Position numbers and translations under genes: made by a program. Of a stretch of DNA of 64,000 nucleotides, positions 16,418-16,750 are shown piece after piece; within the stretch, counting starts at the first letter, position 1; each line of letters starts with the position of its first letter. The stretch comes from Escherichia coli (GTDB lineage Bacteria; Pseudomonadota; Gammaproteobacteria; Enterobacterales; Enterobacteriaceae): the NCBI RefSeq assembly GCF_016903815.1, contig NZ_CP069973.1. One strand, 5' to 3'. The notes beneath the pieces were generated by a model. That model was given only the letters and a program-made list of their open reading frames with translations. It ran no database searches and had not been told where the DNA came from.

Positions 16418-16750
16418 ATGGAGTTGCCTATGTTACACAGAGCCCTTCGTTTAATAAGGCAATACCATAAAGAGTCATTGGTTGATTTATCAACATCTTT
16501 AGGTATTCCAAAAGAAAAAATAGTAGAACTCGAAAGTGGGGTTTGGTCGCCTACAATTGATGTTTTACAGCGTTACGCCTCCCATTTCGATATGCCGGTA
16601 TCTTCTTTAGTATTTTTTTCAGAATCGTTAGGTACGCAGGGGCGTTTATCTAAGCGTTTCCGTTTAAATTTAGCTGGTAAAGTATTAGATGTTATTGAGT
16701 GGGCGAATAAGAAAAATGAAAAGACGAATAAAACTCAAAATTTCCACTAA
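16418..16750 (+). CDS. XRE-family helix-turn-helix protein (start may be 16430)
   Basis: HTH segment (SLVDLSTSLGIPKEKIVELESG); directly upstream of and overlapping the RT gene. Confidence 0.6.
   Translation: MELPMLHRALRLIRQYHKESLVDLSTSLGIPKEKIVELESGVWSPTIDVLQRYASHFDMPVSSLVFFSESLGTQGRLSKRFRLNLAGKVLDVIEWANKKNEKTNKTQNFH

Follow-up and report, generated by a model that had tools for sequence, protein, structure and literature searches.

Overlapping HTH and reverse transcriptase genes of a Type VI retron in a P2-like Escherichia coli prophage

The stretch of 64,000 nucleotides of Escherichia coli contig NZ_CP069973.1 (assembly GCF_016903815.1) analysed here, referred to as the window, carries between positions 16001 and 17666 a Type VI retron, which is composed of a predicted structured RNA, the gene for a small putative toxin (SP), an HTH gene and a reverse transcriptase (RT) gene. 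The first-pass annotation had reported that the HTH and RT reading frames overlap out of frame by about 35 nt, with the HTH frame ending at 16750. This is confirmed: the overlap is exactly 35 nt long and the RT lies in frame +1. We propose that two separate proteins are made from the overlapping genes of this Type VI retron, that the RT starts at 16716 and that the length of the overlap is incidental, and we assign this explanation as a whole a probability of about 0.85. The weak Shine-Dalgarno-like sequence in front of the RT and the geometry of the two genes indicate that RT synthesis is probably coupled to HTH translation. The overlap is the normal layout of a known phage-defence system and had already been annotated and noted; the details that are new are its frame, its distribution across the family, the restriction of selection to the RT frame and the synonymous substitution that leads to the length of 35 nt. 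The features of the locus are as follows:

13491-15821 (+) and 19652-22488 (-): genes of the P2-like prophage (replication endonuclease gpA, portal, terminase ATPase)
16001-16430, approximate bounds (+): predicted structured retron RNA, an msr-msd type ncRNA with the embedded SP coding sequence ('hybrid RNA'), from the predicted fold and conservation
16238-16393 (+): SP, a small protein of 51 aa (PGAP hypothetical protein, Shine-Dalgarno sequence, Vibrio homologue)
16430-16750 (+): HTH protein of the Cro/C1 type, 106 aa (PADLOC HTH_VI, PGAP, homologue alignment)
16686-16688 (+): TAG, the upstream stop of the RT frame (from the sequence)
16697-16703 (+): GAGTGGG, made up of a Glu and a Trp codon of the HTH gene plus the initial base of the codon that follows; the sole Shine-Dalgarno-like element before the RT start, and poorly spaced
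16716-17666 (+): retron reverse transcriptase, 316 aa, with the catalytic motif YVDD (PADLOC RT_VI, Pfam RVT_1, PGAP)
16716-16750 (+): dual-coding overlap of 35 nt, in which RT codons 1-12 (frame +1) lie over HTH codons 96-106 and the HTH stop codon
16734-16736 (+): RT Leu7 codon CTC; the relatives have CTT, which together with the next Lys codon gives an HTH stop (CT-TAA-A)

Start codons of the RT and HTH genes

The RT-frame ORF, taken from stop to stop, opens at ATG 16689, comprises 325 codons and contains a second ATG at 16716. Both had been put forward as plausible RT starts, and only the second is borne out by the homologues. In an alignment of 29 RT sequences, which reaches down to 46% identity (alignment A1), the N-terminus M-K-K-R-x-K-L-K-I-x-T-K-x-K-S-Y-x-x-x-D-S-P-F-Y-K-L is conserved and its Met lies over ATG 16716, the start also annotated by PGAP, whereas the ATG at 16689 is not conserved. 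The part of the N-terminus that precedes the first helix contains Lys, Tyr and Asp residues that are nearly invariant as well as an invariant Ser (K15, K23, Y25, D29 and S30 in A1) and forms a basic, flexible arm, MKRRIKLKISTK; the YVDD motif is invariant throughout the alignment. Among the 120 RT matches listed, most homologues are 314-325 aa long and align over 97-100% of the 316-aa query, and a minority are shorter calls of 298, 281, 267 or 227 aa. Since the conserved N-terminus aligns at 16716 and the ATGs at 16689 and 16791 are missing in most relatives, whose start aligns with 16716, the alignment assigns the RT start to ATG 16716.

An RT start elsewhere, either at ATG 16689 with an overlap of 62 nt or at ATG 16791 with no overlap at all, is very improbable. 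Position 16689 is the first ATG past the upstream stop and was adopted by one gene caller, which yielded the 325-aa cluster representative P0001; similarly, ATG 16791 (MRSKRK...) is present in the window and a few RT entries in the databases are called at 298 aa. However, besides being absent from most relatives, these two codons have Shine-Dalgarno energies of only -3.4 (16689) and +0.6 kcal/mol (16791), compared with -5.3 kcal/mol for 16716. The nine residues encoded from 16689 up to Met10 are not matched by anything in the remaining homologues of 316-317 aa and are modelled with a pLDDT below 50, in an AlphaFold model of the RT with a mean pLDDT of 91.5 (models of the HTH protein and the RT were made solely to judge the order of the segments encoded by the overlap). 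The residues between 16716 and 16791, on the other hand, are conserved and the sequence there evolves as RT-frame coding sequence. The related suggestion of the first-pass annotation, that the RT start had been mis-assigned and the true one lies at a later codon, is contradicted by conserved residues inside the overlap, including the near-invariant Lys encoded at 16731-16733, by substitutions in the overlap that are synonymous for the RT as often as those in RT-only sequence, and by the observation that 57 of 75 loci have no start codon past the HTH stop. An RT that starts past 16750, with unconserved residues in the overlap, is thus not what the homologue alignment reveals.

For the HTH gene, the homologues support a start at ATG 16430, from which the sequence MLHRALRL... 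is kept among them, and rule out the first ATG of the ORF at 16418. GGAG is found 5 nt upstream of ATG 16430, and the corresponding Shine-Dalgarno duplex has an energy of -5.9 kcal/mol and proper spacing. The gene ends at the TAA at 16748-16750, and its product of 106 aa compares with a typical length of 102 aa in the relatives. The HTH_VI profile match stops at residue 96 of the 110-aa ORF counted from ATG 16418, and the last invariant residue of the HTH protein is Trp91, encoded by TGG at 16700-16702. The tail beyond this residue differs in length and sequence (alignment A2), and residues 100-106 have a pLDDT below 50 in the AlphaFold model.

Distribution and evolution of the overlap

To describe the arrangement across the family, 80 loci were collected from species-representative genomes and 55 from viral contigs, together with four V. 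parahaemolyticus loci, RT and HTH were located with profile HMMs, and conservation was counted over the 75 distinct loci in which both were present. In 59 of the 75 loci, a count that overstates the number of independent observations because related loci share ancestry, the RT begins before the HTH ORF has ended, with an overlap of 8-62 nt (most commonly 20-29 nt) and without exception in frame +1. The loci represent many phyla, and the arrangement reaches past the Gammaproteobacteria to loci of Staphylococcus, Collinsella, Clostridia, Verrucomicrobia and Gastranaerophilales. In 57 of the loci every start codon 5' of the conserved DSPxYK motif falls within the HTH ORF, so that no usable start lies outside it and the overlap is unavoidable there. 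The remaining arrangements are an overlap of 1 or 4 nt in frame +2 (8/75), a gap of 1-16 nt between HTH and RT (7/75) and an RT ATG that immediately follows the HTH stop (1/75); the overlaps of 1 and 4 nt are found in distant family members (L040, L042, L066 and L117-L125). As this minority manages with an overlap of 0-4 nt or a gap of 1-16 nt, the system does not depend on a long overlap.

Two unusual loci were observed in the collection. In a locus from a Fusobacteriaceae MAG (L076, around locus position 3024), HTH and RT share a frame and the HTH stop codon, a TAG, is immediately followed by the RT ATG as the sole separation between them, which makes it the sole locus where simple readthrough of a stop codon would yield an HTH-RT fusion. 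The genome of Xenorhabdus hominickii carries two Type VI retron copies on two contigs (L030 and L031), in which the RT is split between two frames near residue 112-125, with HMM positions 1 to about 124 in one frame and 125 to the end in the other; this split is a pseudogene or an assembly indel, in both copies.

The frame under selection was determined by comparing 13 distinct close relatives with a 316-aa RT, with the following counts of variants:

HTH-only zone: 79 variants, 44 synonymous in the HTH frame and 12 in the RT frame
Overlap zone: 36 variants, 5 synonymous in the HTH frame and 16 in the RT frame
RT-only zone: 94 variants, 12 synonymous in the HTH frame and 41 in the RT frame

The per-site variability follows the same division. 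It is highest at position 3 of the HTH codons upstream of the RT ATG (1.11 bits) and at position 3 of the RT codons downstream of it (1.08 bits), and within the overlap the maximum is again found at RT codon position 3 (0.90 against 0.50). The overlap therefore evolves like ordinary RT coding sequence, and the selection acting there is on the RT frame. With the substitution patterns changing over at the ATG from the HTH frame to that of the RT, the 11 codons at the end of the HTH gene are an unselected run-on. We also considered whether the motif K-N-E-K-T-E-K-A in the HTH tail is conserved in its own right. The motif is explained by the underlying RT codons (xAT-Gxx arising from the ATG and GCT-TAA from AAG CTT AAA), and the 5 of 36 variants that are synonymous in the HTH frame correspond to the background rate of an out-of-frame sequence, so this idea was rejected.

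The substitutions also account for the length of the overlap. Among the 13 close relatives, the DNA comparison gave overlaps of 11, 17, 23 and 35 nt. The HTH stops of the relatives arise from NNT-AAR codon pairs of the RT, namely AAG CTT AAA (Lys-Leu-Lys, read as GCT TAA in the HTH frame), ATT AAG and ACT AAA, which lead to overlaps of 23, 17 and 11 nt, respectively, and the AAG CTT AAA arrangement is also present in V. parahaemolyticus. In the window, a synonymous change of the Leu codon from CTT to CTC removes the embedded TAA, due to which the overlap is 35 nt long instead of the 23 nt of close relatives. The HTH gene is extended by 12 nt, or four codons, and ends at the TAA at 16748-16750, which is supplied by the RT codons ACT AAA. 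Since the HTH stop is placed by RT codon pairs, the length of the overlap is incidental.

Translation of the RT and alternative readings

The only Shine-Dalgarno-like element in front of the RT, GAGTGGG, forms a duplex of -5.3 kcal/mol with the 3' end of the 16S rRNA and is located 12-13 nt from the AUG. The conserved sequence GAR-TGG-G was considered as the true Shine-Dalgarno sequence of the RT and rejected, due to its only moderate energy and the spacing of 12-13 nt; its conservation is no evidence of ribosome binding, because it encodes a conserved Glu and the invariant Trp of the HTH protein. In 43 loci, 13 nt separate the HTH Trp codon from the RT start. Of the 12 nt directly upstream of this start, 46% are A, compared with 33% across the remaining HTH gene, and the region 16650-16830 is less structured than 199 of 200 shuffled sequences (z = +2.24). 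As the Shine-Dalgarno-like element is weak and badly spaced and the RT start is found within a gene that is itself translated, the synthesis of the RT probably depends on translational coupling to HTH. This coupling, which the first-pass annotation had also suggested, agrees with all observations and is the most reasonable functional reading, although the A-rich open leader could fit a weak independent initiation of the RT equally well.

In the proposed explanation, the RT initiates at ATG 16716, 13 nt past the invariant Trp codon with which the conserved HTH fold ends and within an A-rich, unstructured stretch. The HTH gene has no stop of its own before this start, and ribosomes translating it would continue, in frame -1 relative to the RT, through the Lys-rich RT codons and end where an NNT-AAR codon pair happens to supply a stop. 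Ribosomes passing on the HTH gene would keep the RT start site open, and those that end HTH translation 17-35 nt downstream of it could move back and reinitiate at the RT start. Such a coupling would link the amounts of the HTH protein and the RT, which form a complex in related retrons. Translationally coupled genes of operons usually overlap by 4 or 1 nt (ATGA or TAATG). The retron genes resemble them in the placement of the second start codon, inside or close to the end of the preceding gene, and in the weakness of the Shine-Dalgarno sequence that belongs to this start. They differ in the length of the overlap, 35 nt here and 8-62 nt in the family, and in that a ribosome would need to move backwards to reinitiate, unless the coupling acts via unfolding. 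The 1- and 4-nt overlaps of the distant relatives suggest that a tight linkage of HTH and RT is a general theme. One might go further and speculate that the long frame +1 overlap is a selected device, which confines RT synthesis to mRNAs on which HTH translation is under way and fixes a low RT:HTH ratio. We regard this as rather unlikely. If it were the case, the low RT:HTH ratio would be set for the RT-HTH-RNA complex that restrains the SP toxin, and the constant 13-nt spacer of the 43 loci and its absence of an HTH stop would be under selection.

The first-pass annotation had also raised a frameshift, either biological or a sequencing error, that splits or fuses an HTH-RT protein. The frames are indeed offset by +1 in nearly all loci, the region is A-rich (AAG AAA AAT G, 16709-16718), and a fusion would not be absurd for two proteins that work as a complex in related retrons. 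Programmed fusions of this kind are known for IS3-family orfAB, at -1, and for prfB, at +1, and share with the retron genes the out-of-frame overlap of two adjacent, functionally linked ORFs. Because the TAG at 16686-16688 closes the RT frame, any change from the HTH to the RT frame would be confined to 16689-16750. It is nevertheless highly improbable that programmed +1 frameshifting in this interval, or transcriptional slippage with the loss of one A, adds some HTH-RT fusion. The shift needed is +1, and the more common -1 frameshift would not give access to the RT frame; the A AAA AAG present in the HTH frame of some relatives was ruled out as a -1 site by this geometry, as it would lead into the third frame. 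Unlike IS3 orfAB and prfB, the retron genes have neither a conserved slippery site nor a stimulatory structure: no HTH-frame motif is found at a fixed place in the 13 close relatives or in some 60 additional loci, among which the length and sequence of the overlap vary, and 16650-16830, which folds worse than nearly all of its shuffles, is devoid of a stimulatory hairpin. Efficient slippage requires A runs of about 8-9 or more, and the longest run here is 5. The RT has its own conserved ATG downstream, and many loci have a stop in the RT frame as near as 3-30 nt ahead of this ATG. Fusion proteins are absent both among 50 HTH homologues, all of 61-119 aa, and among the 120 RT matches listed. 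In addition, the HTH protein and the RT of Retron-Vpa2 were detected as separately tagged proteins (HTH-HA and RT-FLAG) that co-immunoprecipitate (bioRxiv 10.1101/2025.10.22.683967), and the HTH protein of Retron-Sen3 co-purifies with FLAG-tagged RT (bioRxiv 10.64898/2026.04.27.721009).

An out-of-frame overlap of adjacent and functionally linked ORFs is also the classic signature of an indel error. That the overlap stems from a frameshift introduced by sequencing or assembly, or from a pseudogenising split of an ancestral HTH-RT gene, is scarcely credible, though. DNA with at least 99% identity to 15900-17800 is present in 59 complete E. coli genomes, six viral contigs encode an RT with a 100% amino-acid match across all 325 residues and others encode relatives at 74-82%, and the exact 106-aa HTH protein is found on at least 1000 contigs; an identical sequence in so many independent complete genomes excludes a sequencing error. 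Both proteins also align over their full length to homologues and have their own start signals, the same arrangement recurs in dozens of species, and no protein resembling a fused ancestor was found among the 50 HTH homologues or the RT matches listed.

Two separate proteins made from overlapping genes, with an RT start at 16716, thus remain our preferred explanation, and this has practical implications. For annotation, the RT start should be placed inside the HTH gene at 16716, and HTH and RT should be neither merged nor 'repaired'. For engineering, C-terminal tagging or deletion of the HTH gene, or recoding of the overlap region, also alters RT codons 1-12 and may affect RT expression, a point that applies to the Type VI retrons which are being dissected and developed into tools. 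From an evolutionary point of view, the HTH tail is an unselected run-on through RT sequence whose length is set by synonymous choices of the RT, and hence an incidental dual-coding segment. If the overlap enforces coupling, it would provide an extra regulatory layer in a toxin-antitoxin-like defence system, which would be an incremental finding.

The retron, its RNA and the prophage

In the classification of Mestre et al. (2020), Type VI retrons have an HTH protein of cluster 2_1, 91-110 aa in length, directly upstream of an RT of the clade 3 / Type VI group with an intact catalytic YxDD motif, and a subset of them carries an SP gene upstream of HTH; a structured ncRNA or hybrid RNA with the template for reverse transcription lies upstream of SP and around it. 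The RT of the window matches PADLOC RT_VI with an E-value of 1.1e-105 over profile positions 1-278 of 279, with RT_III-A as the runner-up (5e-45), and its match to Pfam RVT_1 exceeds the family cut-off. The 106-aa Cro/C1-type protein immediately upstream, which overlaps the RT, matches HTH_VI (7.2e-30) and Pfam HTH_3. The 51-aa SP ORF is preceded by the strong Shine-Dalgarno sequence AAGGAG (-8.5 kcal/mol) and its product is 35% identical (E-value 5e-11) to the small protein encoded at the equivalent position of a Type VI retron from V. parahaemolyticus. In the Type VI retrons that have been characterised, SP acts as the toxic effector (bioRxiv 10.1101/2025.10.22.683967; bioRxiv 10.64898/2026.04.27.721009), and by analogy with these the SP of the window may have the same role. 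PGAP annotates four genes in one 100%-identical E. coli chromosome, 16238-16393, 16430-16750, 16716-17666 and 17775-19139 (-), as a hypothetical small protein, an HTH protein, a reverse transcriptase and an FRG-domain protein, respectively.

Among the Type VI retrons described recently are Retron-Vpa2 and Retron-Eco12 (Zhang et al., bioRxiv 10.1101/2025.10.22.683967) and Retron-Sen3 of the cl2075 lineage, an SP-HTH-RT Type VI retron of Enterobacterales (Garcia-Rodriguez et al., bioRxiv 10.64898/2026.04.27.721009). RT-dependent synthesis of ssDNA and anti-phage defence have been shown experimentally for Vpa2, Eco12 and Sen3 in these two studies. The window shares with Vpa2 and Eco12 the operon order, in which a hybrid RNA containing the SP toxin gene, predicted in the case of the window, is followed by HTH and then RT. 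The RT homologues of V. parahaemolyticus are 54-57% identical to the RT of the window, and two V. parahaemolyticus loci have frame +1 overlaps of 20 and 23 nt, in which the HTH stop is derived from the RT codons AAG CTT AAA, compared with the 35 nt that result from the synonymous Leu codon change in the window. Sequences or accessions of Retron-Eco12, Vpa2 and Sen3, against which the identity of the locus could be compared, were looked for in the two preprints and not found. The Vpa2/Eco12 paper does not discuss the HTH/RT overlap (0 occurrences of 'overlap'), whereas the partial overlap was already noted in the 2026 preprint on Sen3, which contains no analysis of its frame, length or evolution. 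The SP of Sen3 reaches at least residue 79, compared with 51 aa in the window, and its YVDD motif is located at RT residues 191-194 instead of 198-201; due to these differences, we consider Sen3 to belong to a different sub-lineage.

The RNA upstream of HTH is predicted to be highly structured. The predicted fold of 15960-16430 has an energy of -164.6 kcal/mol (z = -4.74), and none of 100 shuffled sequences was as stable. This architecture agrees with the hyRNA of Vpa2 and with the IR1-IR2 framework of Sen3, as published; an Rfam scan of 15500-19800 with E-values up to 1 returned zero matches. A predicted long-range helix pairs approximately 16002-16011 with the stretch immediately before the HTH start, and its HTH-side strand includes the HTH Shine-Dalgarno sequence GGAG (16421-16424) and extends to ATG 16430. 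According to this model, the RNA fold around the SP gene could influence HTH translation. The sequence of the retron RNA is kept in relatives, where it is read as a spurious 'MGIRTLWATKGSW' ORF, which recurs because the underlying RNA sequence is conserved. Similarly, a 130-aa ORF with a TTG start at 16001-16393 (+) was dismissed as an artefact, as it crosses the conserved ncRNA before it enters the real 51-aa SP gene.

The retron is flanked by a P2-type replication endonuclease gene and a portal gene. It is hosted by a P2-like E. coli prophage, in a site that is a variable hotspot, and with P2-like prophage genes on its flanks it can be regarded as phage-borne cargo. In the same hotspot and convergent to the retron, 17775-19139 (-) encodes an FRG-domain protein of 454 aa (Pfam FRG, 2.4e-21; PADLOC PDC-S15, 9e-98). 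PDC-S15 is a candidate defence family of PADLOC, and judging from these matches, the FRG-domain protein may be the product of a second defence cargo gene in the hotspot.
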